64,000 bases of DNA, taken from Amoebophrya sp. A120 (taxonomy: Eukaryota > Protista > Dinoflagellata). Every line of letters starts with the position of its first letter. Position 1 is the first letter of the stretch. This document shows, piece by piece, positions 8,893-57,700 of the stretch. The translations under genes were made by a program, and so were the position numbers. The stretch is taken from contig CAJINV010000005.1 in NCBI GenBank assembly GCA_905178155.1, positions 6,936,580 through 7,000,579 of the forward strand, read 5' to 3'. The notes beneath the pieces were generated by a model that saw only the letters and a program-made list of their open reading frames with translations, ran no database searches and was not told the DNA's origin.

Positions 8893-11800
8893 ATGGGACT
8901 ACTTCTGCTACACCGACATAACAACGCGACGAGGCGAAGTAGTTGTAAAACCAAAGAGATTTCTTGTCTCCATCAGCAATGTTTTCAACTTCAAAACACA
9001 AAGAGACCCTGCTCCTGGACAAGGACCACGAGATCAACATACTCAATAATTTTTTCTTTCGCATTTTTAAAACGAAAACTAAGCAGTCGCAGTCGTCCAC
9101 CACCAGGCTTGTTCTGTCACTTCGGAACACCAAGACGTGGGATAGTTCTTCTTTGTGTAGTCCTAGTACCTTTCCTACAACTTCTTATTTCTGTTACCGG
9201 TCTCAGAGCTGCTGCTCCATCATCTCCATCTTCCAGCAAGAAAGGACATCATCAGCGTCGACCAGGCCAGGACTTTCCTCCAGGGAACAAACACCAAGGG
9301 AACCACGACCGTGCTGAAGGTTCGTCTTCTTCCGCTGGGGCATATAGAAGTAATTCCCAGCGCCAACCACTGAATCTTCAATCTGGGGTAGTTCATCTAG
9401 AACCTCCTGGTGGACCACACGCACACAATGACGTGCAAATTGTCCAGCGCCAAGTGCTGGAAATGGCGCAGCACAGGGATCATGTTGACGAATCGGGTAA
9501 AAAAACGGCAGGAGAGCATCTGCATCACCGTGGCGGTGATATTTTTGGTGCAAGATCCCCGTCCAATATTCTCGATGATGATGCTCAAAACCACGACGAC
9601 ACCACCAGAGAAGATGAAATAGCAACACACGATCGAGTTTACGCGCAACAAGAGCAGCTGCGCCACCATGTCGAGCCCCTCGACATTCAAATCACGTGGG
9701 AAACGCGGTCGCACGCGAAGTTTTGCTTCATCTACACTGCGAAGCTGAAAATCAAAAAAGAAAAGAAGCGAGGAGCCCGGAAGCGGAAGCGGACCATTAT
9801 GCCCTTGGGGGAAGAGGAGGAGGGGGATCAAGATCAGGACATGACTTCTTCTGGGAATAATTATTTCGGAGGGCTACCACGACAGGAGGATGCTTTCGCG
9901 GACCACATTGCCGCTGACCAGGAACTCGCGGCGCAGTACGAAGCATTGGAAACCGATTTGCAAAAAGACCTCGAGATGCTTAACGTGATGCAAAAATCTA
10001 GGGCGGAAGCAAGAAAGAATAGATACGGAAGACACGACAATCACCAAGATCCTCAGAAGTATAAGGGGCAACAACAGCATCAACAAGCAGCCGCGAGCAG
10101 CAGCGCAGCAGATGGGTCGGTGCACCGCGGGATTCTTCGGGGAGGAGCGTCCTCTAGTAGTACTTCGCAGCACCCGCTGCAGGTGGATCCTGTACTCAGC
10201 GAAGAGCAGTTCCACCAAAGAGCTTTAGAGCTCCACGAGCGGATTGCGCAGAAGAAGCTGCAGCTTGAAAAGTTCTTGCACAGGGATCATCAGGCATCTT
10301 CATCTTCTGCCGATCTTCAACAGGTTGTTGATCAACATCGATCAGCTGCAAGGAGCAACAGCAAAACTTCGGGGGGTCATCACCAGCATCATCAAACCCA
10401 CCACCACCCGACCGAGCAAGTGACCGTGTGTCAGCAGTACCGGCGAGTTCGGCAATACTCGACCCGCACCCATGGGGAAGTCTTTCCCTCCCCTGGACAG
10501 CGACTATCACAAGAAAAGAGGGTTACAGTTACACCTTTGTTGTAACTTCAGCAACACAAATTTTCTCTGTGTGGCAGAGAAAACTTGCAATGCAGAAATC
10601 CTAAGGGAAAACACGTACGAAATGAAGTTCGAAAGCATTTCTTGCATGACAAAGGTTGTCTGTCTTGCGGCTCTTACGACACAACCTGTATACTGTAAAC
10701 ATTTTTTTCTCACGATAGCGACGGAAGAAGGTCCACTACCCGCGGAAGCCGGACATATGAGAGTGCACAAGAGCCCCCCCCTGCCCCTCTTTTGTCATGC
10801 AAAACTCTGAGAAATCCAAGCGCTGCGCTGTGGCACTGTTTGCATGACAGATTCCGGAAGTGGCCCAGACAATATACTACAATAGGCGCATGAACTTGCC
10901 ATGCAAAAGCGCGACGTGTGCTGGTGTTTGTATTGCTATTCATGCCAACATATTACAAATGAGGGAGAGGGGAAGTAAGTTGTGCACTTTCATAGGACCT
11001 GAAGACGGTCCACAACGAGATGAAGAGCAAGGCGCAGATCACCGTTGACAAGGCCCTGGCGCCCACCCTGCCCGGCGCGCGCGAAAATGCGGGGTTCGGG
11101 TGCGCGATTGAGATGCTGGAAAGGCGAGAGAAATGGCGCAGCAAGTGGCTGGATGCGTGCGGCTTCAGCGATTACGATCCGAATGTGATGTATGGGAGTG
11201 TCAGGATCGAAATCGACAAAGTTGAAATAACTTGTAATGCATAAAATGCATGACGCGAAATACGTGCGTTGCAGAGCAGGCAAGTGAGGCCGATGGTAAG
11301 CCTGTTTGGGGTCAGAGCTCGAGCTGCCAAAGCAGCATGAGAGAATCAGTCTTCTTTGCCTAAACAGCATTACAAACTGGATTTAGGCACCTCCAAGATT
11401 TGTCATGCGTCACTTGGAAACTGGGTTCCAACTGGCATCCATTTTATGCATGACAAATCATTTCAACTTTGTCCATCTCGATCCTGACAGTTGCATATGA
11501 TGCTCAAGAAGGTGTTGCACATGCACGACACGCAAGAGGAACAGGACTTCGATGATGATACGTACTTTCTGTTCACGCAAGAGGGAAGCTCCGCGATGAA
11601 CCGGGAGTTTTTTGAGTTGAACCACCGGAACCGGCTATCCTATGGAAAAACGTCCCCACACCATAGTCAAGATGGGAAATCTGCAACACAAATCCCCAAG
11701 TTTTGGGAGTTCTGCATGACAAGTTTCCATCTGCATTGTAGTGCGGACTGGCAAGGAAAGCCGCATGACAAAGCCATTTTCTGATCCTGTTTGCAGCATT

Positions 11801-14800
11801 GCAAATGCCAAAACACGACTGGAAATGCCTCTCATGGAGATGCGCATTACAAATGCTTCTGTCATTGCACATGTGCATGACAGCGCCGGGGTGGCGATGT
11901 TTTTACACAGGATGTCGGCACATCGTTGGGAATTACGAGTCCTCCTTTCCGGAGAACATCGAAATCCGCACCGACCGGAAAGTGGGGAGCCATCCGCAGA
12001 AGCAGTACATCAGCGATCCGGCCAAGCACAAGGCGGTGGTCCGAATCTCGTTGAGTGGAAACGGTTGGTGGGTCCCGACAGTTGGAAAAAAAACGAAAGC
12101 GGCTGCGCCACAAAAGATGACGAAGGTGTTGAACGACCAGGATGTTCTTGACAAAACTGCTAGTACCGCTACTGAAGCAGTAGCAGAGGCCGCGCCACCT
12201 CCAGTGCTAGCGCAAGAACTACATCAAGTCGAAACCGGTCGAGGACAAGAAGAAGACTTTGATTTCTTGCTATCCGAGATCGATCAAGATGACTCCAAAA
12301 CCAACCGCGAGAAGGGGTTGATGAAAGAAACAGAGCGGCTCTTCACGGTGAAGAAGGAATTCGATGACGAGGCGGAGCGACTTTTGCGGGAAAAAGAAAA
12401 GCAGGCAGAAATTGCGAGAATACAGGAAGAGCAACAACGTCTTCTGGAGCAGACTGCACAAGGTAGTAGAGCAGGACTAGTACAGGAAGATGAAGCACAT
12501 CAAAGCTACTCCTCGGAAGAGCAACGAGTTTCCAACTCGACCGCGGGTGCAGCTGGGGGAGGTGCAGCAGCTGGAGGTGCTGATGTTTCTGGCAACGGTA
12601 CTCGGACCTCAGCGGCTTTGGCGGGCTCACCACACGGAGCGGGAAGGGCAGCAGCAGGGGCGATGGACGTAGAGGAGGGTGGTCAAGAAGGGCAGCACGA
12701 CGAGGATCGGTCGGTTATTGAACAAGACCAAGCACGCAGACCTCGGGGAGATGATGCTGGACACCAGCAGGACCAAGTTATGCACCACAATCAGCCGGAG
12801 CCAGATATCGGCGTCCAAAGGGCGGGGCAGCTGAATCTAGACCTACTAGAACAGCAGCAGGATAAAAACGCGGCCCCCGCGCGCAGCGGGACGCCACTCA
12901 CACTGAACGACGACGATGAACACAGAATCTGGATGATGCAGACGACGGATGAGAGCGGCGGGGAAAATCCAAACCAACCAGGAGGTGGAGGTGTTGGCAG
13001 ATCGACGAACAGCTCCGGAGTTGCAGGGGAGCAGGAACAAACAGTTCCGGTGATCGTCGCATCATTGATGGAAGAAATGAAGGGCAAAGAGGTCCTGCCA
13101 GAAACCGTTGCGGACGATGGGAAGAGCACGCACCGGGAACACCCTACGCAAACGGGGGCGAACCGCGGCCACAAAGTGCGGAACTGCCTCGCGGAAATAC
13201 ACGAGCAAATGAGGAACGTCAGCTTCCTATGAACTGCAAAAGTATCGTACTTCTACTTGTAAGTGTTGCAATACAAATTAGCTCAGCATGACAAATGGAA
13301 GTTGCCCTGCTGATTTAGCTTGAAAAAGAAATTTGTCTTGCATGACTGCGATTAGTACGAGTGCGATACTTTTGCACAGGATACCTCCTCGCGGCCATGG
13401 AACGAGCGAACGAGGACGCGATAAACGTGAGTTTCAGCTACCCACCGACCCCGGACCGCTGCTCGCCCGATATTACGGGATATCAAATGCAAATATGTCT
13501 GAGTCTGGAAGAGTGCAGATTTTTGTCATGCTGTTTTTGCATGACACAGCCGGTCTGTCATGAAAGCCCTAGCATCACAGATTCCGAGACCGTGCCGCAA
13601 TGCTTATTCCGCATGACAAATCCTTCTTTTTGGTGACAGGAAATGGGCACCTCTTGCTGCCTATGCATGAGAGATTTGCGCGTGCAGTGGAATTCGCATC
13701 ACAAGTTTGGACCCTTCCAGACCCAGACATATTTGCATTTGATACGGGACGAACAGACGCAAGCTCCCGGATCGCACTGCTGCTGTATCCTGAGAAAAAA
13801 GTGTTACAGTTACACATTGTGTTGCAGGCCAACCAAGACAGACAAGCTCTGTCATGCCTGAAGATATGCATAGGAGCCTCCTTTGCCATTCATAGGTGAA
13901 GGTGTTTTCCCGTAGGATTTCTGCATTGCAAGTTTTTTCTCTCATGCAGAGAAAGTTGTGTTGCTGAATTGACAACAAATCTGTAACTGTAACACTTTTT
14001 TCGCGCGATATGCTGGCTACCACTCCGACTACAAACGCTGACGGGAAGCCGAGAAGGCCTCGGTCTTTCGTTCCCAAAATTGTGATGATCGAGCCCCCGC
14101 CGGCGGAGAGAGAACCAGAACACCCTGCGGAAGCTGCAGAAGACCACAAGTCGAACCAAGAAAGTAAACAACTTCAAGAAACCACTGCAGGAGCGGAAAT
14201 AAATGCTGCCGCGGCGCAGCAGCACGACGCAACTACAGCAACAGGCGAGCAGGGGATGATGTTGAAAGGCAAGCGACAGCGACAGGCAAGTAAAAACAGC
14301 ATGAGTGAAGGTCAGCGGCGGGGACAGCAATCGCAGGATCATGTTGGGGAGCATTTGCTACACGATCAGCAGGATCCGGACTCACCAGAAGAGGAAATAA
14401 GTTATGGACAAAACAAGCAAGCCGCACAAGAAGAAGGACCACCACAGCTGCACCAGCAAATAACGAAAGTGGTCCCCGCGACGACAACTTCCTCCTCACC
14501 GAAGAAAAGCCGTGGCGGAGGAGAACAAGGACTCCTTCACATTCCAGCCGCTAACACACATTCCGTCTCAAACAGCACCACGGCTGGGCTGACCACGCTC
14601 GTGAACCACGGGGCAATGACTGGTGTAGTGGAAAACGCGGGATCCCGAGACAGTCACGTGAGTGGAAGATCCAACATGACGAGCGGCAACGCCGGACGGG
14701 CGGGAAACGCAGTGGCCGCTGCGGGAGTGGTAGTATGCATTGCAAAAGTATAATATCTTCGTCCTACTAGTACTACAGGAATTCGAATTGCAATACGAAC

Positions 14801-17800
14801 AAGTAGCTCAGCATGACAAAAAATGGAGCTTGTCAACATTCAGATTCAGCTTGAGATGGGGATTTGTGACTCCTGATTGCGATTAACACTAGTACAACGG
14901 GTTCGAAGATACTTTTGCACAGGATAGGTAGCAGGACCTCACAGTAATATGGGAAGTCCCCCGCCAGGCCCGCCAGCGACGCCCAACAATGGATCTTCTA
15001 CTAGTAGGCAAGATCTACAACTCCCGGTGCAAAGTCCAGTAATTGAACATTTACAGCACAATCCCGTCAGAGTTGTCCTGTCCCCCGCGGCGGGGAATGA
15101 CCTTCAACATCCTCCGCCCCCCTGGCCAGACATGGCGCAAAACGGCACCTCCACGAGCGGACCGTTGCAAATGCACCACCTCCCCACACCAGAGGCCTCG
15201 GAAGCGGTGGGGTCGCATGACTTGAGTTTACAACAACTAGCCTACAACACGACCAGGTCCAGTGTGGTCCTGTATCAAGTGTAAAAATGTCTGGGTCTGG
15301 AAGAATGCGCGATTTGTCATGCAGCTTTTCCATGACCCATGAGGTCTGGAATACGAGACCCAGCATGACAGATTCTTTGAGGTCTCTATCATGCCTTTCC
15401 TGCATGAGAAACTCCCTCTCAACTTGGTCAAAAGGGTACAGCTTTTGGCACTCATGCAACACAGATTTCTGCATGATTCGGATTTAGCATGACAAGTTGC
15501 AATCTTCCAGACCCAGACATTTTTACAATCCATATCCTGCCTAGTGCGACGAAAGGAACTAGTACATCCAGGGGAGGTATCCAGGAAAAAACACCCATCC
15601 CCATCCAATTTGTCATGCAAAACATGCATGAAGTCCACTACTTGTCATGCAAAAAATGGATGGGGATGGGTGTTTTTTCCTGGATAGGAGGTGGTGGAGC
15701 AGGAGGAGCTTCTGGGCCAGGTACTCGTTCTGGGATTCGAACAGGAGCAGGCAACAAGGAAGACCAGATGAACACCACACAGAGCCCTATCACGTTACTA
15801 GAGATGCAGCAGATGCAAGATCAATTTCAAGACTTGCAGCTGCTAGGTGCGAGACGTAGCCCGCGCGCAGGAGCAGGCGGAGTTCTTGTTCCTTCCTCAT
15901 CTGTGCGTGAAGATGTTGCACCCGCTGCCACCTACGCGGGGGGAATGATTGATGTTAGGTCGGGCGCTGCAGCTACGGCTCCTCGAGAGCAGGGCGCACA
16001 TCACGCTGCGGCCGCAAATAAAACTGCGGCAAGCGGAGGTACTAGCGGTAATACTAGAACAAGAAAGCAGACACGACCGCAAGTAGATGAACAAGCCGCG
16101 GCACCACCACCAGCTCCTGCTACATCAACCAACGATAACCATAACCGCGTGGAGGCGATGCTGAGTGGGGATTTAGATGATTTGCTTAACCTATGGATTG
16201 CAAAAATGTCTGGGTCTGGAAGAGTGTGAACTTGTCATGCAGGTTTTCCATGACCCTTGAGGTCTGCAATGCGGGACCTAGCGTGACAGAGTCTGTGCGG
16301 TCTCTTTCATGCCTATCCTGCATGAGAAACTCCCTCCCAACTTGGTCGAAAGTGGACAGCTTTTGGCACTCATGCAACACAGATTTTTGCATGATTCGGA
16401 TTGAGCATGACAAGTTGCAATCTTCCAGACCCAGACATTTTTGCAATCCATATAATCGCCAGTCGTTTCTGGATGGATTGCAGCGGAATTCCAGCGTCGA
16501 TGTGCACAGACATTCTAATTCCGGCGGAGGTAATACAAAAGATGTTAACCTGATGAAGCATGTCAAGAAATCCTCGGCACGAGAGGTGGAGGACCAGGCA
16601 AGAGCAATGGTGAGTCCCGATCACCATTTTCCGCAGGAGCTTGTCGGCAATAAAACTAGTATGGACGTGGAGATGCGCAATGCAACGGCAGGGGGAGGAG
16701 GGGGAGGCCGAGGTGGACTACAGAATTTTTACCAACAGCACCAAATCGGCGGAAGTTCGTCCTCTTCCGCCATGGTAGGTGGGCAAAAACTACAATATTC
16801 CCAGGACGTTGCACCAGTTGTACAACATCTTCCACCTCCGCAAAAGCCGCCCTCACATCCCGCGACCAGCGCCGCCCACGCAACAGGCGGTGGAATAACC
16901 ACCATCAACAACGTTACTGGCGGATACCATTTTTACGCCAGCAGTGCAGCCGCTGCAGCTACAACAGCGTCTATTGTGCAGAACGAAGGAACGAATGGTC
17001 CAAACCCAACAGTAAATCAAGATGAAAAACCGAAGCAGGGGGAAGTTTTGCCCCGAAATGTGAAGAACTTTGTGCATTTAGAACCGATCCACTTTCCGCC
17101 AACCATCATAACCCCGAGCTTTCCCTCCGGGGACAAGAATGTGATAAAAGAGCAGTACGGGGGGGACGACAATCACCCAGCACTTCTCCGGTTCCCCCAC
17201 ATCAATCAATTGACAGACAACACGAGGCAAACGGAGGAGCAGCGGGAATATTACAACAGTAAAAACGCGCTGCTGCATTTGCGGTTCGGCGGCCCGAACG
17301 CGGGCGAGGGGGTATCGAACTGGCGGGGGTTATCAAGTGCAAAAGTGTCTGGGTCTGGAACATTCTAAACTTGTGATGCTGTCTCTGGATTCTGAAAAAA
17401 ATTGTATTGCATGACCAGCAAGAGGGCTCCAGTTTGTGCTACGTGGAGAGGGCATTTCTCATGCTGTACAGGTATCACAAAGCGCTCTAAAATTCTGTGA
17501 TGCTACGGCATGCATCACAGACATCATGGGGCATGGAAAATATGCATGACAAACCTAGAAACCTTCCAGACCCAGACATTTTTGCATTTGATAGGGGTCT
17601 TTTAGTTACAAAGTGTACCGGGAAATTGTGGATATTGAGAAATTATTCCCCTTCCCGGTATTGGACGATATCATTGTCGACGTGAAAACGGGACAACAGG
17701 TCGACGGCGCTCAAGAAGTTCTGGAGGAAGAGTATCATGTTGAGGAGCACCGGGGGCGGCCTGGTAGCGCGATCAAGCAGAAAAGACATCAGCACGTGTC

Positions 17801-20800
17801 AAAAATAAAGCCGGAAGTGTATCTGGAGAATGGGGTTATTGTGAAGAAAAACCGGACCACGAGTCATGTTCCTGCAGATGCCCAGCAGCCACGACACTGT
17901 AGTGCTACGCCGAGTCCTCCTCCTCGCGGTTCTAGCGCTGCAACGCAGCAAGACAAGAACCAACAGAGGCAGAAAGGTTGTGCTAGCGCTCTATCTGCGC
18001 AAAAAGCGAAAAATAACTTCATCTCTGCCGAAGCGGAATTCCCCGAAGCGCTGACCGCCGCCGAGCACCATGCGCGGGTTGCGAACAGCAGTTGTGAGGT
18101 ACAACTGTTCGGAGAACAGGAGAAACCGGTACGGGTGTCCACCTCGATCGAGAATGATCTCCAGGTCCGGGCGATTTCCAACGAATATGAGAGTGCACAA
18201 CTACTTCCCCTCGTTCTCATTTCTCATGCAAAATACCTAATTTACGCATTGCCTCCTGTCACTATTATGCATGACAAGTTCTGGCAGCCCAGATAGCACT
18301 ATACTCCTGTCCAAATTAAAATTTGTCATGCAAAACCTGTATTCTTATTGACGGTTGTATTGCTGTTCATGCAATACAAATGAGGGGGAGGGGGAGTTGT
18401 GCACTGTCATAACGAAAACAGCCGGACCAGTACGGATCAAGATCAGAACTTGATGCAGGTAGATGATGGAGTGGGAGGTGGAGCTGCAGCTGCTGCGCCA
18501 TCTCCTCGTGTTCCTTACAAAGACCCACAGATGGCTGCCCTCGCAGCTCTGGCAACTACTACAGGAGTTGTGAAAACTACGGACGACAAGAAAAACTGCC
18601 TGACTCAGTCGTTGAAAAAGGCTGCAGAGGGTCGATATGCACTGCGAAAGTATCGTACTAGTAGAAATTGCATTACAAACTGCCTCAGCATTACAAATCA
18701 ATGCAATTTGTAATGCGGATTGCCTATGATAACTAGATTTGTATTGCATCTCTGCGAATACTACGAGTACGATACTTTTGCAGTGCATAGTCGAAGTGGT
18801 ATGGTAGTGATACCGTCCGTTCGCGGTATGAAAGGAGGTACTAGTAGTAGTTCCAGTCGCGGAGGAGGCGCAGCAGGAATATTATCTACAGGCGCTGGCA
18901 TGAGCAGCGCCGCGAGTTGCGCTAGTTCTTCGGCTATCAAATGTAAAAATGTCTGGGTCTGGAAGAATGCAACTTGTCATGCTAAACCTGAATCAGGCAA
19001 AAAACTGTGTTGCATGATTGCCAAAAGTTGTGCACTTTTGACCTAATCGAGAGGCAGTTTCTCATGCAGGATAGGCATCAGAAAGGTCCCGCAGAATCTG
19101 TCATGCTATGTCCTACATACCAGACCTCATGGGTCATGGAAAATCTGCATGACAAATCTGGCAATCTTCCAGACCCAGACATTTTTGCAATCCATATCGG
19201 CGTTGCCTGACAGTACCTCGTATGCATTGCAAAAGCATCGCACTAGTATGGACCAGCCATGCTCCGGCTGCCGCCGGAGCGCAAGGCTGTTGGGTCGGGG
19301 CAAGACTGTTTGCCGATAGGACCACAACCCCGCGGGCCTATGCACAACGAAACACATTGCGCCGCGCCAACCCGCAGGACCACTTGCGCGCTTCCCGCGC
19401 CTGTGGGCGCTCTGCGCAGGGAGCAGCTGCAAAGACCACCGGGGGCGAACAGAAACCGCCCGGCGGGGGAGGGTAGCGCGAGAGGGTGGCGCGAGAGGGT
19501 GCGCGAGAGGGTGGCGCGAGAGGGTGGCGCGGAAAGGCGCCGAACAAAACAGCTCCGCGAATGGCCTGCAGTGCCAAATATGGGTAGTGCCATGCGGATT
19601 CGCGCCCGCTTCTTTGTGTTTTACCCTCTCGCAGACCTCTCGCAGACCCTCTTTTTGGCCTCTTTTGGGGGTCCCCGCTAATAATCCGGCTATACTCGCG
19701 GGTAGAGGTCGACAGAGGTGGCCGAGAGGTGGCCAAGAGGGTCCGCGAGAGGTCGCCCCTTATTCGCGCCACCTCTCGCCACCTCTGTCGAACTCTCGCG
19801 CCCCCTCTTTTTGACCTCTCTGCACCCTCTGAGGCACTTAGGCGCCGCCTTAGGGTGGGTCCTTCGGCGGGCTATACTCGCGCACCCTCTCGCCGGCCCT
19901 CTCGAAAGGGGTCCCGCGCCACCTCTCCACCTCTGTCGACCTCTTTTTTACCTCTTTTGACCTCTTTTTGACCTCTCGGCCACCTCTTGTTTACCCTCTG
20001 TCTACCTCTTTTTTCGCATGAATATAATATATAGTAATTGCATTACAAATTTGCCCAGCATGAGAAATAGGATTTGTCATGCTGTTTTACCTTTAGATGG
20101 AGATTTGTAAATGCATAACTGCGATTACTACGAGTGCGATGCTTTTGCATTGCATACCTCGCTGCAGATCCAGGACCGGAAGTTTCGTTCCTCGACGAAC
20201 ACCATGCTGCCACTTTACAGCGACGAGCAAAGTAGATGCACAGGAGCTAGCAGCAGTGGCGCGGCGGGGGCCGTGGACACTGTAGACAGTTTGACGAGTT
20301 GCTGTGTGCAACATCAAGGAGCAAATAAAGGTCCTGGAAAAATAAATCATGGAGATGATCCTGCGACCTGCAAAGGAATAGGAGTAGGAAATAAGCAGGA
20401 CCACATGGAAATAGTGGAAGAAGTAGGTGGTCAACAAGACGGGAACAGTAAGAGCAACAGCGGAACAAGTGGTAACAGCTTGGAGCAGGAGGGATCGCTC
20501 ATGTCCGTTTACGACGTAGAACCTTTAGAGCAGGAACATGACAAGTCCACAAAAAAGCCCACGACGGAAAGCTGCGAAATCCAAAGTTTTCTCTATGACA
20601 ACCAAACCTCCTCGAGGCCATCTCACAACCGCCCCGCGACCAGCGAGTCGAGTCGCAACGCCACAGTGTCGGAGGGAACCGGGGTCTTGTCATCCGCCCA
20701 ATCGGGATTGAGTAGCCAAGCCAGGGAAAGCGCAAGCTCCATGTACGCGAATGAGGGTGATCTATTGATGGGCGACCACAACAACTTCCGGGGCCGTTTG

Positions 20801-35723: not shown

Positions 35724-36422
35724 ATGCCCGGAGGGCATCTTCCGCCCCGGGCAGCAGGCGACCCACCGACAACGCAAAGTAGTAATGCCAATTATGACCA
35801 TGCAGCTGATTATGGTGCTGCAACCAACAACTGGATCCCACCGCATGCCGGTACTAACCAAGCGCAACAAGAAGCAGATCATGACACGACGCCGACCAGA
35901 TCCGCTGCAACATCTCTCTCGCAACAACTTTTCGCCCTCAACCGACGACTCCGGAACTTTTTTCACACCATACTCCGCCTGTACGGGATTTTGTGCCTCC
36001 ACGTAGCGTTTCTGGTCTCCATGCGGACGAGCTACGAATTTTTGGTGAAGATGGAATACGGAGCGGAATTCTTTTATGGAAGTGTCAGAATCGAAATCGA
36101 CAAAGTCGAAAAATTTGTGATGCACAAAATCGATGCCAGTTGGAGCCTCAGTTTCTAAGTGGCGCGTGACAACTTTCGGGACCACCAAAATCCAGTCTGT
36201 CATGCTGTTTGGACAAAGCAGGCTGCTCCTGTCATGCTACTCTGGCAACATATTACATTTTACATACCCCTAAACAGGCTTCCAATCGGTCTCATTTGCC
36301 TGCTCCCCAATACAGGCGTCGCGTGCCCTACATTTTATGCATCACAAATTGTTTGATTTTGTCGATTTCGATCCTGACACCCCCATATCTTTTTTGTCGA
36401 TTTTTTGTACCTGGCAATGTAG
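35724..36422 (+). CDS. Small hypothetical protein (~126 aa) with a hydrophobic C-terminal part, or an upstream ORF of the BEACH gene
   Basis: ATG at 35724. Removing introner 36075-36387 gives ..AEFFFVDFLYLAM* (TAG 36420-36422). No recognisable domain. Confidence 0.4.
36075..36387. mobile_element. Introner family C
   Basis: TSD TCTTT/TCTTT. Confidence 0.85.
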
Positions 36423-36540
36423 ATGATGATAGATCATGAGCCAGTTGCTTTAGGTGTCAGGGAATAAAGACTCTAGCCGCGCGGCTTCTCCACGACGTGC
36501 ACCACGTGCAGGCTTCGCGAAGACCCCCTTCTAATCGAAA

Positions 36541-43933: not shown

Positions 43934-46900
43934 ATGCTGATACAAACTCCAACCGGGAAGCCGATGAAGCTGAAGGCTTACATCAGGCCACTCCTGGAGT
44001 ACGTTCCGGAAATACAAGCGCCGGAGAACAAACTCCCTTTCTACACAAGAGCCAGCTACACGATAGGATCGCTGTTGGCGTTTTTAGTGGCATCACAGTA
44101 CTTGTTAAATAATAGCTCCCTGTTTATGTTGTTCCTCTTCGCTGCAGTTGCATTTCTCATACAGCTGCTTTGGCACAAAGTTGTTTTGATTTGTCGACGC
44201 ATAATTGATGTTGACGGCGTGGTGCACATGTGTGTCCACCCCACTATACATGAAGCATGAACATCAAACGATATTTTCACGAAAAATAACAGGATTCCTC
44301 TCTACGGTCTCGCAGCCGGCGGCGCGGGAAAGAATGACCCGTTTTACTGGCTCCGAGCCATTCTCGCGTCGAATAGGGGGACTTTGATGGAGCTCGGAAT
44401 CGCGCCCATCGTGACGATATGAAATGCAAAAGCATCGTACTAGTATGAACTGCAATACAAGTTGTCTCAGCATGGGAAATAGAATTTGTAATGCTGATTG
44501 ACCTTAGAAAAAAGATTTGCAATGCATAACTGCAGTGACACTTTTGCATTTCATATACGACAAGCATGATACTGCAGTTTCTCGCCGGGTCGAAAATTAT
44601 CGAACTTGACCAGAATAACCGGGAGGACAGGATTATCTACGCCGCCGTGCAGAAGCTCGCCGGTTTGGCGTTCACCGCGATACAGGCCTTTATGTACGTG
44701 ACCAGCGGAATGTACGGAGCGCCATCAGTATCCACAGTAAATTTCCCGTACGCGTACAAATGCAGTCTCTGCATGAGAAAACTGGGCTTCGATCCTAGTT
44801 TAGCATGACGAATTGGTGCAATTTGTGATGCATCTTGTACATGTACGGGCAAAATTTGTATTGCATAATCAGCGTTAGGCGCGTTTAACGGCGGCGCGAT
44901 CGTTTTCCAGCTGACAGTAGCCGGGTTTATCGTGTTAATGTTGGACGAGGTGTTGACCAAAGGGTGGGGAATCGGCTCGGGGATAAGTCTCTTCATCACG
45001 ACATCGATCTGCGAAACCATCGCATGGAAGGCGTTTTCCTTGGCCAGCGTGCAGACACGTATAGTTTATGATTACAGGAGAAGCTGCTTGGGATAATCTG
45101 TTTCAGCCCGATTTTTTCTTCCGTCAAGTTTATCTCTCTTTAGCATGTAAATGTATTTATAGCGTGCTACACGAAGCAGAGAAGCGGTCCGATCGTCTGC
45201 TACGACTTTGTGATGCAAAAATGCATGATGGTTGTTCTATCTTCGGATAAATCACGAAAAACCACCACAACAGCAAACGGAGTGATGTTCGAGGGCGCAA
45301 TCTCCAGCTTCATCCACCAGCTCATCTTCACAAATCACCGGCTTTCCGCCATTCTCGAGGCCTTCTACCGACCATACGGAGCCAACATCACAAATTTAAT
45401 CGCCACAGCAATCACCTTTGCGGTTGTGGTGTATTTTCAGGTACTATAACAAGTGCTCCTGCGAGCAGATGTTGCCCGCAGGCAGAGAATCCGTGCGCAG
45501 ATACATGTTACTATCTTCAGGCAATTTCAATTTGTGAACTCGTGACGAATCCAATAAGAAAAAATAACATTTTGAAACTTCGCGGAAATTGTTCTCTTCC
45601 TGGTAGTGTGTATGCTGACATCAACATGTAGACATCACAAACACTAAATCTTGACTGTCTATCAGGGGTTCCGGGTTGACCTCGCCGTGAAGAGTCAGAG
45701 GGTACGAGGGCAGACTGGAAACTACCCCATCCGCCTCTTCTACACGTCTAACATGCCAATCATTCTGCACTCAGCGCTGGTATAGCTTTTTCTCTTGTAG
45801 TTATGTCTGCATGACAGATTGTGTGACTCATTGGTGGTTTGCATGACAAATAACCGACGAGGACTTTCATCAAATTAATGGGGTGGAAATTAATATACAA
45901 AATCAAAAACCACCAAAACTTGATGTAACAGATCTCCAACGTGTACTTCTTTTCCCAACTCCTCGCCCGACGCTTCCGCAACAATTTCTTCGTGGGGTTG
46001 ATCGGCCAGTGGCAGGAAGTGGAGTATTTGAACGAATCCATCCCGGTCGGAGGCCTGGCCTACTACCTGAGCCCGCCCGGCGGACTACTCGACTTCTGCT
46101 GGAACCCGTTCAGATCAGTGATGTACTGTATCGCAAGAAAAAACTGTTTCACTGTGAACTTGTGATGCAGAAAATGGATCGCAGAAGTGAGTGTCATGCC
46201 ACACATGCAAGACAATGGATTTCTAGCTGTGTTTTTCCTTAGGAACCCCGCATGACAGATTTTCAGTGTGGTCACGCGTAACAAACTTGTGATGCAGATT
46301 TTGCAAAATCACCACAGTGAAACATTTTTTTCGTGCGATATACTGCACACTGGTCATCACCAGCTGCACCGTTTTGAGCAAGCTGTGGATTGACAGTATT
46401 CAATTTTTCGCTTGTCTTTGTATAGAGCCCTTCGTAAAGCAGATGCTGAATTGCATCTTTCTATCAAAAGCAGCTTGATACCCAACGCAGGCGTGGTTTT
46501 TGTCATGCACAAAACGGAAAAGTACGTACAATAAAAGAAAACTAGAAACAAAGTAAACAAAATCCCACAGTTTCCGGCGAAGCCCCCCGAGACGTGGCAC
46601 GAAAGCTTATCCTGTGCAAAAGTATCGTACTCGTATTGCAATCCTGCATTACAAATCTTTTTGTTGAGGTAGATCTGCATTACAAATTTTATTTTTCATG
46701 CTGAGGAAATTTGTAATGCATTTATACGAGTGCGACACTTTATTTGCACTGCATAAAGCTCCGCGAGCAGCAGCTCACCATTGTCGGCTACAGAAGTGAA
46801 TCACTCACCGATGTCTTGAAAAAGTACATCCCGCAGTGCGCGGCATTAGGCGGCGCCATGGTGGCGATCTTGACCATATTCGCGGATTTGGTGGGCTGCC

Positions 46901-47007
46901 TAGGGAGTGGAACTGGGATGCTGTTAGCGGTAAATTTCACCTACACCTATATGGAGCAATTAGCCCGGGAAGGAGGCGGACTGCCGAACATGGGGCTCTT
47001 CGCGTAG
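43934..47007 (+). CDS. SEC61A: Protein transport protein Sec61 subunit alpha
   Basis: [78 protein letters not shown]. Four introners and five GT-AG introns. Confidence 0.95.
44418..44555. mobile_element. Introner family A
   Basis: TSD GACGA/TACGA; removal restores PIVTTSMILQ. Confidence 0.85.
44729..44867. mobile_element. Introner family B
   Basis: TSD ATCAG/ATCAG; similar to 393-572. Confidence 0.85.
46129..46340. mobile_element. Introner family G-like (TIR core GAAAAAA..TGTTTCACTGTG)
   Basis: TSD TACTG/TACTG. Confidence 0.85.
46608..46755. mobile_element. Introner family A
   Basis: TSD AAGCT/AAGCT. Confidence 0.85.
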
Positions 47008-48274: not shown

Positions 48275-51175
48275 ATGTCCCACCTGTCCGTTGCTTCCAC
48301 CGCGGAGCCGGCGGAAGCGGCTCCGGCCGCCGACCCGGAAGCCGTTCAGAACAACGAAAACCACGAGATCGACTCCGTGATTCCGGATGACCCGCTGGAA
48401 AACGAAACCCAGGCGCCGGAGGAGAACGATCAGGAGGGGAATGACGACAACGAAGATGACATCAATTCCGTCCCCCCGCCACCCCCGGAGGATGAGGAGG
48501 AACAAGAAACCGGTGTTGCAGCTGGTGGTAATATGTCTACCAACCAGCTGAACGCTGACGCTGCGGAGTTCACGATGGGAAATAGTAATCAGGACCAACA
48601 AATCGCTAATATGAACCCGAATGTGGTGAGTATGATGGGGAATAACAATATGCAACACCCTATGGCAGGAGGCGAGAACAAGAACAATCACCACCGGCAG
48701 AAGTGGAATCCGATGCACTTTGTCGGGGAGTTCGAGGACTCTCTCGGCCACCGGATCACCTCCGTCGAGGTGCCGCCGCGGAACCCCACTGGACCGGGTA
48801 TGAAACAGCCGGAGCCGTCCTTTCACGCCCACTTTGTGGCCAGAAATCGCCCGGATAAGAGGTACTGATTTGATTCTTCCTATATCAATCTGTTGCGATT
48901 GCTTCTGCTTGCATGACAGGGACTGCTTGCAATGGAATGTTCTTACGCATCAGAAGTTAGTTGTGCATCGAGATTTTTGCATGGAGATGTTCATGGGCTA
49001 ATAGCATGAGAAACAAAGGTCTTTATTCGTTATGCGAATACACATACACATCGACGAAACACAAAAACAGGTTCGTCATCGCCCGGAAGCAGGTGATGCG
49101 ATCGCAGAAGCGTGCTTGGATGTGCGGGAATGGGTACTTTTGCCACCAGCTGTCCAACCCCGACCGGATTGTCTTTCAGACCATCGATGGACGGGAAAAC
49201 GTCTGGACGAGGCTGCCACCGGTAGAATTTTTGTTTGTCATGCAGTAACAGGCAAGAGACGCACGATTTCCGTTGCTACAGTGCTAGTTTAAGTAGTCTA
49301 TGTTTATTGTGTGCTTCCTTTTAATATTGACGTTCAAGTTTGTCATGCATAATAGCCACAGCACTTCGAAATATTAAACGACGACACTACATCACACTAT
49401 CAGGCCGGCGCCGTTTTCTTCGATCCGCCCCCGAATCTGACGATCGACGTGGATGCCGCAATGGCGCAGTGGCGCGAGGAGCACTTGAAACTTCTCGAGC
49501 AGAAGATGACGGAGATTCATCTGGAGGACGAGCAAGCGATTGCGGAGAAGGAACAACAACAACAGCAAATTTTGACCGAAAAGAACGACACGACCGAACA
49601 ACAAGAACAGTTGCAAAATAACGTTGAGAAGGTGGAAAATATTAACGCCGTCCAACGGAAAGAAAAAAACGACAAAAATACGACCGAAAAGCAGGCATTC
49701 AAAACTGGCGAAAGCACACCCTCAACAACTCCGGATGAGGAAAGCAAGGAGGAACCTAGTGCCACCGAAAACAAGAAATCCGACGACACCGAAGCCACTT
49801 CCTGGGCAGCAAAGCTGAAGAAGTCAACAGAGACGAAAGCGTCCTCATCAACTGCTACGAAACAGGAGAAAAAGGACACCAAGCCAGTCCCCAAAGTCAT
49901 GGAAAACGTAGAAAAGTCATGGCCACCAAAGAAATGGGCGGCCAATGCCAACGCGGAGGAATTTTTCCCGGCTTGCTTGGAATTGACCCGACCAAGAGTA
50001 AGCGGGAATGCGAAGCAGGTGAAGGAACTACAGGTAAGTATGAATTAATCTTAAATAAACAGATAAGTACCACTGACTAGAGGCTTAAAGCGACGAGCTT
50101 GCGATGTATATTTTCCAAACATAGTTAGAGATAGAACCGCGAGTAGCATCATCTTCTTTGTAGTTGTGCAGATTCAAAATCAAATTTGACCTACTTTACT
50201 AGTTTGTCATGCATATTATCCGAAACAAAAAAAAACTTGTATCAGGTCCGAGCGGTCTCTGATGTTGGGATGGGCAACCAGATGTTCTCCGAATTGCAGT
50301 GGACGTTGGAGGAAAAGTGGAGCCAGTTGAAGAAGAATCCGACGGATTTCGCAGTGGTGTCCCCGCACTTCTCAGTCGGCGTCGTGGAGAACGTATTTTT
50401 GCTTTACATACTGTTTGTACTTTTTGGCAGTACAGAGTCAGTTTGTCATGTAAGAAGAAGCATGAGAGGCTAATATAGAAAGAGCAGCCAACATCCGCGC
50501 TTTATCTACCAAGAAGCCCAATCGTATCGCTATCTTGTATGGAAAGACTCAATACTCTGTCGTAAATGAAAAACACAAAACAACTATCAGCTCCAACTTT
50601 CCTTTTTCCCGTCCGGGAGGAAAGCCAGCGGCAAGAAGTCGAAGCACACCTCGCTCCAACTGATCACGGGCGATTTGCAGGAGAGAGCCATGGGCTTGGA
50701 ATTGGAAATTATGATCAACGGCATTCGGTGTGAAACCGCGAAGAAGACGGTTAGTGGAAGGTTATGGATGTGTCAGAATCGAAATCGTCAAAGTTGAACT
50801 AGTTTGTCATGCATAAAATGCAACGCAGAAATTGTCTCTATTGCAGAGAACGCAAGAGAGGCAGACTGTAAGCCTGTCGAGGGGCAGAAATAGAGCTGCC
50901 CAAGTAGCATGACAAAAGGCGTCGACCTTACCCAAACAGCATGACAAACTGGATTTAGATTCTACCCAAATTTGTTATGCGCTACTTGGAAACTGGGCTG
51001 CAACTGGCCTCCACTTTACGCATGGCAAACTATTTCAACTTTGTTGATTTCGATCCTGACGCTTCCATAAAGGTTCACCGGGGACTACCCGTCTATGGAT
51101 GATAAGACGGAGGAGGTGAAGATTTGCTTGAGGATAATCAACTTGTTTAAGGACGAAAAAAAGATCGAGAACTAA
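48275..51175 (+). CDS. Hypothetical acidic protein with two PAM2-like motifs and a possible MATH-like C-terminal domain
   Basis: NQLNADAAEF and NANAEEFFP resemble PAM2 (LNxxAxEFxP). Four GT-AG introns plus introner 50763-51069; TAA at 51173-51175. Domain calls made by eye. Confidence 0.6.
50763..51069. mobile_element. Introner family C
   Basis: TSD AAGGT/AAGGT. Confidence 0.85.
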
Positions 51176-52257: not shown

Positions 52258-53677
52258 ATGGTCGTACATCTATCGAAGAGTAGAGTCGGCAAAGCCACAG
52301 CCGTGTTGGCACTCCTGTCGCACACCGCTGTCTATGCCGATCCAGCCCCGGTACAACAACCGGCGGAAAAGAACGGAAGGCAACTACCTGAAATAAACAC
52401 CTCGGCGGACAATCGTATCCTGAAGCCGAGACTTCGTGGGACGTTGCGGAAAAGAGAACTGCTGGAAGAGGCAGCTGCATCAAACCTGCTTCCAAGTAGC
52501 AACTTGATGCAAAAGCAGGAACTTCTGCAAGAACTACAGCTGCACAAGAAAGAAAACGACGGCGCACTCGAAAAATTACAACGAACCTCCGAGCAAGAAC
52601 TCTCCCCCAAGCCGCGCCTCCGCGGCACCCTCCGGAAGCGAGAACAGGAGCAGGCCGCGGCGATGTCGGCGGCTAAAGTAAAACTACAGGACAAGTTGGA
52701 AGGCGAAGGGAACAAGCCGACGGCTGCAAATGATGATGCAACAGCAACTGCAAGCAATTTGATGCAGGTGATGAAACAGCAGGAGCTGCATCTTCACAAA
52801 CACGATCACGGAGTCGTGCCACCGCAGCAGCTCCAAGACCACCTCGTCCAAGCCGGCTCGAACGAAAACATTTCACAAGACCACCTTGTTCCCAAGCCCC
52901 GGCTCCGCGGCACTCTGCGGAAGAGAGCGGAGAGGGAGATGAAGCTGAAAAGCGCGCCGGACGGTGGTGCGGAGACGAAAGAACTACTCACAGTCCCTGC
53001 TACGTCGGACGACAATGTGACGGAACAGCATGAAATAAACACCAAAGTCACCGCCAGCAGCACAACTTCAACTTTGCAAAAGCTGGAGCAACGGGAGCAG
53101 CAAAAACACGACCTTCAGCAAAACCACAAGTTCGAAACATTTATGCTGGAATCAAAGAGTTATCTCAAGGAGAAATTCGAAGAACTCTCGTCGTCCATGG
53201 GCAAGAAATTGGACGAAATTGTCGACGATTACGTGCAGCCGTTTTTCAAATCCGCGGAAGAAAAAACCGTGGAATTGGCAAACGAAGCGCTCACTGGGGC
53301 CGTGCAATCTTTCACGGAAACCACGACAAACGGCCCGGATGAGGGCAGCTTCTGGGCGAGGTTTCAGAAACAAGAATTCGCGGAGGTATGACAGTGCACA
53401 ACTCCCCTTCCCCTTCATTTGTCATGCAATATACCCAGTCCACCCTTGCCTTTGCCACTTGGCACTGTTTGCATGACAAGTTCTGCTTCTGGTAGCTTAA
53501 ATAGCACTACTATAATGCTCTAGTGCAAATTTGTCATGCAAAACCACCAATCTTGTTGATGCTTGTATTGCTGTGTATGGTATACAGATGAGGGGAAGGG
53601 GGAATTGTGCACTCTCATACGCGGGCGGGTTCGGAGATCAGATCGGGGACGAGGTGGTGGCACTGGGGCGGGTGTGA
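52258..53677 (+). CDS. Putative secreted protein with three KPRLRGTLRKR repeats
   Basis: Signal-peptide-like N-terminus (MVVHLSKSRVGKATAVLALLSHTAVYA). Long ORF to 53386, then an introner; short last exon ending TGA 53675-53677 (junction uncertain). Confidence 0.65.
53387..53619. mobile_element. Introner family D with displaced TSD
   Basis: CGCGG-AGG-TAT..ATA-CGCGG. Confidence 0.8.
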
Positions 53678-54783: not shown

Positions 54784-57700
54784 ATGACCGAGCCGGCTCC
54801 TCCGAAGCCGAACAAGCAGCACGTGCACATCGTGGCGGAGATCGGCATCAACCACAATGTATCCTGTACAAACGTATCGTACTCGCATTGCAATCATGCA
54901 TTACAAATCCCTTTCTTAAGCCAAATCTGCATTACAAATTTCATTTCTCATGCTGCAGAAATTTGTATTGCATTTATACGAATACGATTTTTTTGCAATG
55001 CATACAATGGGGACATTGAACTCTGCAAGAAGCTGATCATGCTCGCGAAAACGGCCGGGTGCGACTCCGTGAAAATCCAGAAGCGAAACCCCGATGTCTG
55101 CGTTCCGGAGGACCAGAAGCTATCAAATGCAAAAATGTCTGGGTCTGGAAGAATGCAAGACTTGCCATGCATATTTCTCATGACCCATGATGCCTGTAAT
55201 GCATTACCTAGCATCGCAGACTTTTACAGGGCTTCCTGATGCACCTTCCGCATGAGAAATGCCCCCTCCGTGTAGCACAAATTGCACCCCTCTTGCTGGT
55301 CATGCAATACAATTTTATTTAGAGTCTACAAACAGCATGACAAGTTGCAATCTTCCAGACCCAGACACTTTTGCAGTTGATAGAAACAGAAGATGCGCGA
55401 CACGCCGTGGGGGCGGATGACGTTATCAACTGCAAAAATGTCTGGGTCTGGAGGGATGCGAACTTGTAATGCTAGCTCTCCATACCCAGGAAATCTGTAT
55501 TGCATAGCCAACAATGAAAGTCGCAGCCTCTTTTGTACATGCAAAAACGCAGTATCTCATGCGGATTTCCTATGAGAAAGGGAAAGCGTTCTCAAAAGTT
55601 GTCATGCTGTAATGCATGCGGAACTGTTTCCATCATCCACATTTTAGCATCACAAGTTTCCAGGCCCAGACACTTTTGCAATGCATAGACGTATCTGGAA
55701 TACAAGTGGAAATTGGAATTCAACGAAGAGCAGATCAAAGAGCTGATCGAGTACAGCAAGTGGATCGGGATCACGTTTTTCGCTTCCGTTTGGGACATAT
55801 GCATTGCAAAACTGACGTACGTACGTAGAAATTGCATTACAAATTTTCTCAAGAAGAAAAATACAATTTGTCATGCGTGTTCAGGTAGAGAAAGAGAATT
55901 GAACTTGTCATGGATAGCTGCAATTACTACGAGTACGATACTTTTGGAGAGAATAGGACAAGGAAAGCTGCGATATGATGTGCAAGTACGGCGGATTGTC
56001 GAAAATCCCCTCGGCTTTGATCACGGATTTGGAACTCTGCGAGTACGCAAGGAAAAAGTTCGAAACGCTGATCATTTCGACCGGTAAAGTTGAGAAGAGT
56101 TACGCGGTGATAGACATTGACATAGATGATTTAGGTTTTTGCATCCGCGAAACAGAGGCATTGGCTTGTGATGCCTCTGCATGATAGATCAGTCCAACAG
56201 CTTTACTGACCATTTTCGAATGTTTCTGTATAAGGAGTACTCCTGCATGACAAACAGCACAATCCAAAACTCTTTAGAAAACAGGTATGTCCACCGAAGA
56301 GGAGATCGAGGCCTGTGTGAAGGTGTGCGACCCGGATATCATCATGCACACGAATTCGACCTACCCGTGCCCCTACGAGGATTTGAACCTGCGGTACATC
56401 ACGCACCTGAAGGACAAATACCCGGAAAAAATCATCGGCTACTCCGGCCATGAGTACGGATTGGTTACCACATTTTGCGCGGTCGCGCTCGGCGCGCTGT
56501 ACGTCGAGCGACATATCACGTGGGATAGGAACATGTGGGGGTCTATGGGAGTGTCAGAACCGAAATCGTCAGAGTTGAAATGATTTGTCATGCACAGATG
56601 GATGCCAGTTGGAACCCAGTTTCCAAGTAGCGCATGTCAAATTTTGGCGGTCCTTCAATCCAGTTTGTCACGCTGTTTAGGCAAAGAAGACGGATTTTCC
56701 CATGCTACTTTAGCAGCTCGAGCTCTAACCCCAAACAGGCTTACAATCGGCCTCACTTGCCTGCTCTGCAAGACACATACCCCGCGTCGTGCATTTTATG
56801 CATGACAAATCATTTCAACTTTGTCGATTTCAAACCTGACGCTTCCATAGGGTCGGATCAGCTGTCATCCGTGGAGCCGGCGGGGTTGTTGAAATTAGTG
56901 AAGGGCATATGCAAGAAAAAAACTGTGTAAGTGTAACTCTGTAATGCAGAATATGCAACAGATCTACGCCTGTCATGCCACACAGCCACGAAGTCCTTTT
57001 TTCATGTGTGTTTTCCCTTACAAGCCGCGCATGACAGGTTCTCTCTGTTATGTAGACTAAATTTGTGATGCTGTCAGCCAAAGAGAGTTGCACTCACACA
57101 GTTTTTTTCTTGGATAGGGCATCCGGGATTCCAGCGAGTCGTTGGCTTACGAACCATATGGTTTGCTCAAATGTTACAATCTCAAACGTTACAATAACAT
57201 CATCTCAAATTTTCCTGACCGAACATCATGAGTACTGTACAGAGACTTGGGCTTTCGCGATACAAATTTCGCGAGATAATTCTCATGGGGTTGGGAGCTC
57301 CGAAACTTGTCATGCGTGCTCCTGTGGGAGTCGGCCAGATGTTGCGCATCGTGCAACACAAATTCCAGATTCTATGGTATACCGATTTGAGATTGTAACA
57401 CCTGGGCGGGTTATAAACTAGGGCCGAGGATTATGCAACGTAATTTTCCCGTACATGTACAAAATGCATGACAAGCTTCACCAATGTGGAGTGTAACACT
57501 TGTCATGCTAAACTAGGACTGAAGCCCAGTTTTGTCATGCAGAAGCCACATTTGTACGTGTGCAGGAAATTTACTGTGGATAAGGATTCTGTTCGACCGG
57601 GAAAACTCGAAGAAGGTCAGTTTGCGCCCGCAGCTATCCTGTGCAAACGTATCGTAGTCGTATTGCAGTCATGCATTACAAATCTTTTTGTTAAGGCAAA

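Follow-up and report, generated by a model that had tools for sequence, protein, structure and literature searches.

How can one and the same DNA element serve as an intron in either orientation within genes that all lie on one strand? The question is raised by a 64-kb stretch of the genome of Amoebophrya sp. A120 (hereafter the window), for which a preliminary description reported family members as reverse complements of each other in plus-strand genes and proposed that their ends are recognized symmetrically.

Inverted-repeat elements in both orientations

Our curated catalogue of the window contains 63 inverted-repeat elements of the form TAT...ATA with 5-nt target duplications. A strict scan (TAT...ATA, at least 11 of 15 positions paired and at least 4 of 5 duplication letters shared) gives 39 matches, compared with 0–1 in 20 shuffles, and ten weak candidates were removed when its output was curated. 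Candidate 54472–54589 was also discarded, as RNA contigs are continuous over 54539–54853. All 63 elements start with TA and 59 with TAT, while 61 end in ATA. The duplication is perfect in 44 of the 63, and the flanks do not match beyond 5 nt. A run of A follows near the element start (A at positions 11, 12 and 13 in 43, 54 and 48 of 62 elements), except in families C and D, where it is absent from the terminal repeat. The elements, which include nine multi-copy families, are likely to be non-autonomous DNA transposons; a Pfam search with 6 frames from two larger repeats in the window gave no match, nor did an Rfam search.

These are the already published introner elements of Amoebophrya A120, the same system in the same strain. 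The consulted sections of Farhat et al. 2021 (PMC7789003) describe RNA-supported, non-GT-AG introners in repeated families, with a hairpin model, a terminal repeat of TAT, 7 nt and AAA, and direct repeats (5 bp in the legend of Fig. S19). The window elements have this type of terminal repeat (TAT, about seven variable letters, A run) and a 5-nt direct repeat at the border, within the 3–5 nt of A120 introners. They likewise form repeated families, are lost from RNA and are mostly non-GT-AG.

Each of the 14 element positions given in the preliminary description is exactly where the TAT of an element starts, and pairwise alignment bears out the reverse-complement pairs reported for families C, E, B and G. 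Orientation was scored on inner sequence only, with 30 nt cut from both ends, so that the inverted repeats cannot decide it. The reverse-complement and forward scores are 342 and 56 for 11191/56544 (family C, in which five copies were also aligned), 234 and 21 for 15273/18935 (E), 113 and 24 for 393/57432 (B) and 120 and 22 for 10505/13786 (G), against a maximum of 26 in the shuffled null. Both orientations are present in eight of the nine multi-copy families in the window, with zero inconsistent edges, and the ninth, F, is found both ways in another assembly (8:6).

The host genes do read on the plus strand, as had been stated: when each element is removed together with 5 nt, 53 of 61 junctions fall within long open plus-strand frames. 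The longest of these (8863..26439, +) has 3856 stop-free codons across 23 elements, and removal of the element plus 0, 1, 3 or 4 nt breaks it into frames of at most 726–734 codons. No relative of it was found among proteins of 763–2175 residues. The frame also contains six duplication mismatch sites. An open frame is the one line of evidence for family C 11191..11497 (+), family E1 15273..15534 and 16192..16452 (both +) and 18935..19196 (−), family G1 10505..10717 (+) and 13786..14010 (−), and family B 5171..5334 (−) in a calmodulin-like gene. The host of the reversed family C copy 36075..36387 (−) is uncertain; here we saw a short plus-strand frame of 158 codons, ending about 9 codons past the junction, and no RNA or protein support. 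Window exons match two deposited A120 proteins, P0001 and P0011, at 100% identity, and our gene models reproduce both. P0001 (1547 aa) corresponds to a BEACH/WD40 gene (36541..43035, +) with eight elements, and P0011 reads through family B 393..572 (+) and family C 858..1139 (+), the latter in a 5'-nucleotidase gene.

Removal from RNA and position of the cut

We compared positions 37900–60500 of the window with transcript contigs from two samples of one study, which are unstranded and whose RNA status is presumed. The raw RNA runs X8 and X9 contributed 3 and 2 reads. In 52000–60500 all 13 catalogued elements are missing from these contigs (12 by joints, one by a loose end), and in 37900–52000 eight of ten are missing, as judged by piece positions or exact length arithmetic. 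This gives RNA support for 21 of the 63 elements; 40 lie outside the compared regions and 2 were not shown to be removed. Both orientations are missing for elements of families A, B, C and E, in agreement with the preliminary description. In family C, the X6 contig resumes at 51070 after 50763..51069 (+), with lengths of 936 and 2590 that equal the model, and the reversed copy 56544..56849 (−) is removed with 5 nt (joint 56538>56850 in X5, X6 and X7). The latter lies in a NeuB-family synthase gene (54787..57793, +) that has 287 codons once nine elements and one canonical GT-AG intron (56084..56284, +; joint 56082>56284) are taken out. In family B, 57432..57582 (−) is removed with a joint to 57583 (X5, X6, X7), and 44729..44867 (+) is supported by an X6 contig whose length of 2111 equals the model's 2111. 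This copy lies in a Sec61-alpha-like gene of the SecY family (43934..47005, +; four elements and five canonical introns), together with family A 44418..44555 (−), supported by X6 length arithmetic, and 46608..46755 (+), after which the X6 contig resumes at 46755. In family E1, 55121..55382 (+) is removed (joint 55119>55387, both=1), as is 39611..39880 (−), which starts with TAC (X6 length 1235 and model 1235; also P0001). Further family A copies are removed at 54860..55004 (+; joint 54853>55004), 55798..55955 (−; joint 55792>55956, with an X7 contig of 1646 equal to the model's 1646), 57635..57778 (+; joint 57629>57779) and 40050..40217 (−; X6 resumes at 40222). In one contig, 54860, the opposite 55798 and 57635 are all removed. 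Family G2 56908..57116 (−) and family E2 55424..55687 (+) are removed as well, and P0001 reads through their opposite copies at 36566–36778 and 40814–41065, respectively. RNA contigs lack the element together with 5 nt whichever way it faces, and genomic contigs contain it.

Mismatches between the two duplication copies, where informative, place the cut between positions 4 and 5 of the duplication; the intron then reads N|TAT...ATA-NNNN along the transcript. Wherever they can be placed, the cuts are 1 nt outside the repeat on the 5' side and 4 nt outside on the 3' side, and the first intron letter and the final four are free. In RNA contigs, the letter retained at position 4 comes from the left copy in 40050, 55121 and 57157..57415, an element found via RNA only (joint 57156>57583, 6 letters between). 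Left-copy letters are retained up to position 3 in family D 53387..53619 (+; positions 1 and 3; joint 53384>53623, both=2) and in 60293..60489, which is removed with 5 nt (loose end after 60292 in X5 and X7). In this last element the duplication has decayed to 2 of 5 letters, and the cut is still 3–5 nt beyond ATA. On the other side, position 5 comes from the right copy in single-copy element 59712..60019 (joint 59706>60020, both=4), the sole RNA case to limit the cut on the right-hand side; the other two limits on that side come from annotation, in family A 36841..37009 (−; Trp in P0001) and single-copy element 3004..3313, which starts with TAC (Ile in P0011). Position 1 comes from the left copy in the reversed family D element 3756..3998 (−; Met in P0011). 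P0001 and P0011 are reproduced only with one to four left letters kept, whereas 0 or 5 fail, and in another assembly one case with a stop codon calls for two or more. All five elements informative on the left side keep at least three left letters along the transcript, a pattern expected 1 time in 32 if the cut were tied to random element orientation. The cut is polar along the transcript, 1 nt on one side and 4 nt on the other, and the idea of symmetric recognition is not supported. We consider it very probable that the elements are of transposon origin and are removed in this polar manner at the RNA level. An 11-nt micro-exon (57420–57430) follows element 57157.

Signals and machinery of removal

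As the preliminary description held, neither GT nor AG is needed: G occupies +1, always as GT, in 20 of 63 elements, AG ends 7, and both occur in 2. The window flanks would give 20.0 and 4.0, so these canonical U2 letters are near background, and in another assembly G at +1 (92 of 265) and AG (28 of 265) compare with a background of 82 and 19. The next two letters of the canonical donor are present: under the mapped register, +2 is U and +3 is A in 63 of 63 elements and in 261 of 265 predicted 5' ends in the other assembly, where the remaining four lack the A. The register places TAT at donor +2 to +4, matching local canonical donors, which are GTA- in 15 of the 15 canonical introns compared in the window and GTAT in 9. 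This placement could be a chance outcome, as it is one of six registers. Table S4 of PMC7789003, in the part consulted, shows T at +2 in all nine predominant A120 sites (GT, CT, AT or TT), and all nine A25 sites begin with TT, the A25 repeat starting with TTA; these sites could partly reflect aligner habits.

We favor, with a probability of about 0.5, a putative relaxed spliceosome that reads the mirror-image ends of the elements. Both element ends read TAT inward, which would present U, A and U at donor +2 to +4 in either orientation. The terminal stem would bring the element ends together and may set the 3' cut four bases beyond ATA, thereby replacing AG. Orientation independence would then follow from the inverted repeats, and symmetric chemistry is unnecessary. 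The motif GCATNACAAA, shared by elements and canonical introns as described below, also speaks for this reading. According to the sources as far as consulted, A120 is reported to have U2, U4, U5, U6, Prp8 and U2AF, with U1 and snRNP27 not detected, loss of SNRNP27K in yeasts accompanies a preference for U at +4, and the MITE introns of Fritillaria are processed by an altered spliceosome (reviewed in PMC11282704). Against a relaxed spliceosome stand the background levels of G and AG and the four ends that lack A at +3. In addition, the predicted long stem would bury the donor and would have to be opened, and the stronger conservation of the 5' end that we looked for was not found (rare variants 1.46 per 5' end and 1.11 per 3' end, p 0.16). 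TA at −6/−5 of canonical acceptors, seen in 7 of 15 introns in the window, was not replicated in another assembly (2 of 19). A first version of the canonical-intron finder, exact in 2 of 8 benchmark cases, was set aside.

Several of these observations would suit a Euglena-like route, in which the paired termini are recognized by a nuclease and ligase separate from the spliceosome, or by another splicing machine. Cleavage would occur at set distances from the stem (5' side, 1 nt; 3' side, 4 nt), and any resemblance between TAT and a donor would be incidental. The architecture matches the Euglena code N3-CDG...CH'G-N5-6|R, neither G nor AG is needed, both ends are equally conserved, and the cut at 60293 keeps its distance despite the decayed duplication. 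The ends are predicted to pair in all 61 short elements as transcribed and in 60 when flipped, and compensated changes number 11 against 5.2 expected. On the other hand, 16 of the 61 predicted folds, that of the spliced 39611 among them, have weak outermost three pairs, and exon starts have no purine preference (36 of 63, compared with 33.6 in the flanks). A120 and A25 also share T at +2 though their repeats differ. G.U and A.C mismatches are about equally frequent on the transcribed strand in three tests (38:50, 85:80, 43:57), and the folding energies of actual and flipped elements are equal overall in the window and in another assembly. In a query-selected subset the trend is toward the actual strand (p 0.001), in bystanders toward the flipped one (p 0.03); since these trends are opposed, we draw nothing from folding energy. 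With no G.U excess and equal energies, nothing shows selection on RNA pairing, and inverted repeats are expected from transposition alone. We regard the Euglena-like route as a real possibility that falls short of even odds. Structure-guided splicing had been deduced from the two orientations. A terminal stem is predicted in both orientations and the architectural likeness to euglenid introns is real, but the deduction itself is not supported: the terminal sequence presented by inverted repeats does not change when the element is flipped, and two-way introners with ordinary G-/AG splice sites exist in Polarella and Aureococcus.

Conventional polar signals on both strands would be another answer, with GCATNACAAA acting as a branch point available in both orientations of each element. 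GCATNACAAA is a strand-blind motif that marks both intron classes, at 11.3 per kb in elements, 5.3 in canonical introns and 0.04 in exons, with 76 sense and 89 antisense copies in the window elements and 358 and 333 in another assembly. Its T-N-A-C core resembles the branch consensus. However, the exact core is only antisense in 5 of the 15 canonical introns and absent from 4, and in family A, whichever way the element faces, the sense copies lie at least 74 nt from the 3' end. Strand and position, which is independent of the acceptor, lead us to reject GCATNACAAA itself as a branch point, no polar branch motif was seen in the window elements and introns, and the reading as a whole is improbable. 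TA at −6/−5 of canonical acceptors, seen in 7 of 15 introns in the window, was not replicated in another assembly (2 of 19). A first version of the canonical-intron finder, exact in 2 of 8 benchmark cases, was set aside.

Excision from DNA in the transcribing life stage, as with ciliate IESs, had also been suggested. The TAT/TAC element ends recall the Paramecium IES consensus TAY, and a minor empty-site form is compatible with the joints listed for the one genomic sample. However, genomic X1 contigs span elements 40050 and 53387 in full at a depth of 44–47, the single-copy level, and RNA contigs lack both. Unspliced and spliced contigs coexist over 57127–57474 in X5. The spliced junctions retain no TA, and the left letters are kept along the transcript, as described above. 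As the elements are kept in genomic contigs, excision from DNA is unsupported; we consider it largely refuted and highly improbable.

Relation to known introns

Ciliate IESs have short TA-starting inverted ends, a transposon origin and positions inside genes, and their removal from DNA leaves one TA; the A120 elements stay in the DNA of the one genomic sample, and their junctions retain no TA. In Polarella glacialis and Aureococcus (bioRxiv 10.1101/2020.10.14.339549), inverted-repeat introners with target duplications give rise to introns whichever way they face (classes 6, 8, 10, 2, 7, 3 and 1), as do the window elements. Those introners have G-starting donors (GT/GC/GA) and AG acceptors supplied by the element or the duplication, whereas the A120 elements need neither, and a single register applies to every family. 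Euglenid nonconventional introns (PMC12501133, PMC11282704) resemble the A120 elements in their paired termini, free junction letters, fixed unequal offsets from the stem and likely MITE origin. They differ in signature, N3-CDG...CH'G-N5-6|R as opposed to N1-TAT...ATA-N4, and in the purine at the exon start. In Euglena, pairing has been demonstrated by knock-ins; in the A120 elements a stem is predicted in all, and no RNA-strand signature of selection was seen. The MITE introns of Fritillaria borealis, as summarized in the consulted part of review PMC11282704, are similarly transposon-derived and non-GT-AG, with inverted repeats, duplications and lineage-specific positions, but have dominant AG-AC/AG-AT ends and experimental spliceosome support, unlike the A120 elements.

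The headline is not new, since the elements with their hairpin have already been described in strain A120, as have two-way introners in other algae. Our addition is the rule N-TAT...ATA-NNNN, valid in both orientations and without G or AG, where PMC7789003, in the sections consulted, states that splice sites vary with respect to the hairpin and that the border is unknown. Two-way use within families, the cutting register and the shared motif go beyond those sections, whose passages on orientation concern genes, and we did not find them elsewhere in print, although Fig. 3 and Figs. S19–S25 of that paper may show part. The register is apparently unreported, and literature searches for GCATNACAAA returned only unrelated listings. 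The rule explains how exons can be invaded at any site with the protein unchanged, and makes the removal of 60% of Amoebophrya introns without U1 directly testable on existing reads. For A25, it predicts a cut at the first T of TTA.

A bolder and, in our judgment, unlikely extension is that A120 and A25 share one intron code, in which a U1-less spliceosome would require no more than a U at +2 and an A at +3, the 3' cut would be set by distance from the stem without AG, and the strand-blind GCATNACAAA, read on DNA or on paired RNA, would replace U1. Under such a code, any transposon with TA-starting inverted repeats and GCATNACAAA would be a perfect intron anywhere, either way.

Elements of the window and their host reading frames

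The window contains 63 elements that start with TAT and end with ATA, 109–313 nt in length apart from one of 936 nt, each flanked by a 5-nt duplication that is perfect in 44 of the 63. A strict scan of the window returned 39 matches, compared to at most one in 20 shuffles. These elements correspond to the introner elements of Farhat et al. 2021 (PMC7789003). All 14 coordinates named in a preliminary description prove to be exact element starts, and its observation that family members occur in opposite orientations is confirmed by alignment of the inner sequence alone in eight of nine multi-copy families. Family letters follow that description where it gave them; A, D and F and the splits E1/E2 and G1/G2 come from the present analysis.

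Excision in silico of each element with 5 nt (+2 gives the same frame) places 53 of 61 junctions inside long plus-strand frames, the longest reaching 3856 codons over 23 elements. Removal offsets other than +5/+2, tried on the window elements, do not restore long plus-strand frames. Two deposited Amoebophrya sp. A120 proteins, P0001 (BEACH/WD40) and P0011 (5'-nucleotidase), are 100% identical to two window exons, and the gene models recover P0001 (1547 aa) and the in-window portion of P0011. The models also yield Sec61-alpha-like, NeuB, Rpn12-like, calmodulin-like and MORN proteins. The least certain host gene is that of element 36075, where the frame is weak, and the reading frame is the sole support for seven copies named in the preliminary description. 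The 936-nt element (19221–20156) belongs to family A and carries a GC-rich, internally repetitive insert of ~780 nt; its removal restores the frame. Removal of three elements likewise restores a 577-codon frame in a MORN-repeat gene at 59290–61773, and nine elements lie inside a NeuB-family (sialic-acid-synthase-like) gene of this eukaryotic parasite at 54787–57793.

Removal from transcripts and retention in DNA

The transcript data are contig runs X5–X7 (two samples of one study), whose RNA status is presumed and is backed by the absence of one GT-AG intron; from the raw RNA runs X8 and X9, only three and two reads aligned to the window. At 52000–60500, 12 joints are listed for the contigs, one for a canonical intron and 11 rows spanning 12 elements, and all 11 rows skip the element plus 5 nt. 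Removal of a 13th element is shown by a loose contig end; two of these 13 were discovered via the RNA contigs themselves. At 37900–52000, the lengths of four X6 contigs and the positions of their pieces are consistent with the loss of 8 of 10 elements, 38422 and 40814 being the two without RNA support. X6 contig and model lengths agree at 1235, 2111 and 2590, the Sec61-alpha-like match holding after a 1-base correction of one canonical intron end in the model. Members of families A, B, C and E1 are missing from the RNA contigs in both orientations, family A within a single NeuB contig (1646 nt; model 1646), and deposited proteins add support for D, E2 and G2. The proposal that the same element acts as an intron both ways is thus borne out by RNA contigs for these four families, and partly by frame only for the named copies. 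The elements are a known system, real and spliced both ways. Two-way introners are also known from Polarella and, as cited in the same preprint, Aureococcus, but with G-/AG sites (bioRxiv 10.1101/2020.10.14.339549).

A scan with one repeat end gave 133 loci of another assembly (L001–L133, contigs JACKZZ01...), none overlapping the window. A detector that, on the 63 window elements, scored 50 true calls and no false ones found 298 elements there, of which 265 were oriented by a codon score trained on the window (concordant in 61 of 63 multi-call loci) and 33 were dropped. The window's families are present, the seven families with at least two bystander copies occur in both orientations, and non-query plus window copies are balanced (83:89). 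Elements picked up through their exact query end are biased in how they face the transcript, 77:27 (p 1e-6). Conservation of 5' and 3' ends does not differ in this larger sample, both being equal.

DNA-level excision like that of ciliate IESs, also raised earlier, finds no support: elements 40050 and 53387 are whole in genomic contigs of run X1, at the depth of single-copy bins (44–47). Contigs spanning whole elements at single-copy depth speak against excision of the IES type as the predominant form; a minor form is compatible with the joints listed. An unspliced X5 contig at 57127–57474 (depth 46), either retained precursor or DNA, stands alongside the spliced form (depth 230). An 11-nt micro-exon between two NeuB-gene elements (57420–57430) is kept in X5, X6 and X7, and a G>C difference at 54569 occurs in one X5 contig only.

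Position of the cut and the removing machinery

A perfect duplication hides the cut position, so the cut was mapped only at mismatched duplications. RNA contigs retain the left letter at position 4 of the duplication at 40050, 55121 and 57157, and left letters through position 3 at 53387 and 60293; at 59712 they carry the right copy's letter at position 5. In deposited proteins, position 5 is the right letter at 36841 (Trp) and 3004 (Ile) and position 1 the left letter at 3756 (Met); the homologue P0012 likewise has Ile and Met at the 3004 and 3756 sites. A single cut between positions 4 and 5 accommodates all nine cases, for which the deposited annotation may draw on the same RNA data as the runs. 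Read along the transcript, the intron has the polar form N-TAT...ATA-NNNN; the nine cases that define it are a small set, and just three of them limit the cut on its right side. With this polarity, the symmetric recognition suggested previously is not supported. In L001–L133, position-4 mismatches are synonymous in 8/9 cases versus 17/40 at the other positions (p 0.023, post hoc), which hints at occasional one-base slippage of the cut or at constraint on the final letter of the intron. In the literature searched, we found no earlier description of either this constant polar register or the common intron motif described below; together they make the removal mechanism testable.

Under the mapped register, the TAT of the elements occupies donor positions +2 to +4, and canonical donors in the window read GTA- in 15/15 and GTAT in 9/15. 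Neither G at +1 nor a terminal AG is required in the elements. In Table S4 of PMC7789003, 9/9 predominant A120 non-canonical sites start with GT, CT, AT or TT and 9/9 predominant A25 sites with TT; the main text reports no clear signature at such sites. The A25 repeat begins TTA in the same source, and judging from sequence a cut at its first base would likewise give U+2 and A+3. U1 and snRNP27 are reported there as undetected with the rest of the spliceosome present, and a +4 U in yeasts is linked to SNRNP27K loss in PMC10581693. The donor likeness, the U+2 of Table S4 and a spliceosome with U1 and snRNP27 undetected favor a relaxed spliceosome as the remover, to which we assign about even odds. 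Other observations weigh against this and in favor of a separate machine that reads the paired termini of the elements, a plausible alternative. End pairing is predicted for all 61 short elements, family C copies of opposite orientation have predicted folding z of –6.3 and –11.4, and the same plan with other offsets is demonstrated by knock-ins in Euglena, according to PMC12501133. However, three tests of G.U versus A.C on the transcribed strand found no excess, and RNA pairing of the termini is therefore rated only plausible. The symmetry argument of the preliminary description, taken alone, does not lead to structure-guided splicing. A 3' TA signature common with canonical acceptors was seen in 7/15 in the window but was not reproduced in another assembly (2/19). 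The 15 canonical window introns start with GTA and end with (A/T)CAG, preceded by a tract that is A-rich (51% A), not pyrimidine-rich.

A shared intron motif and other repeats

The motif GCATNACAAA, GCAT(G/T/C)ACAAA, has 116 exact matches in the whole window compared to 0.7 expected. Found on both strands, it sits in elements as well as in canonical introns and is almost absent from exons: its 8-letter core occurs on either strand in 59/63 elements and 11/15 canonical introns, with 1 match in 24.6 kb of exon. In the other assembly it is present in 262/265 elements, where it partly served as a detection criterion. A polar branch point is improbable, as the core is antisense-only in 5/15 canonical introns; the motif probably marks introns at the DNA level or irrespective of strand. 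Comparisons with IESs and with the branch consensus draw on general background.

The intergenic, GC-rich stretch at 6320–7700 has a near-identical 40-nt direct repeat at each end and is possibly another mobile element; a Pfam search of it gave no match. Seven copies of the motif core lie inside it, at 7011–7412. A 2.6-kb stretch at 32006–34664, of a non-TAT type with internal tandem repeats and no Pfam match in three frames, is bounded by 128-nt inverted repeats (91%) and apparently occupies part of a long intron in the gene for the Rpn12-like proteasome protein.
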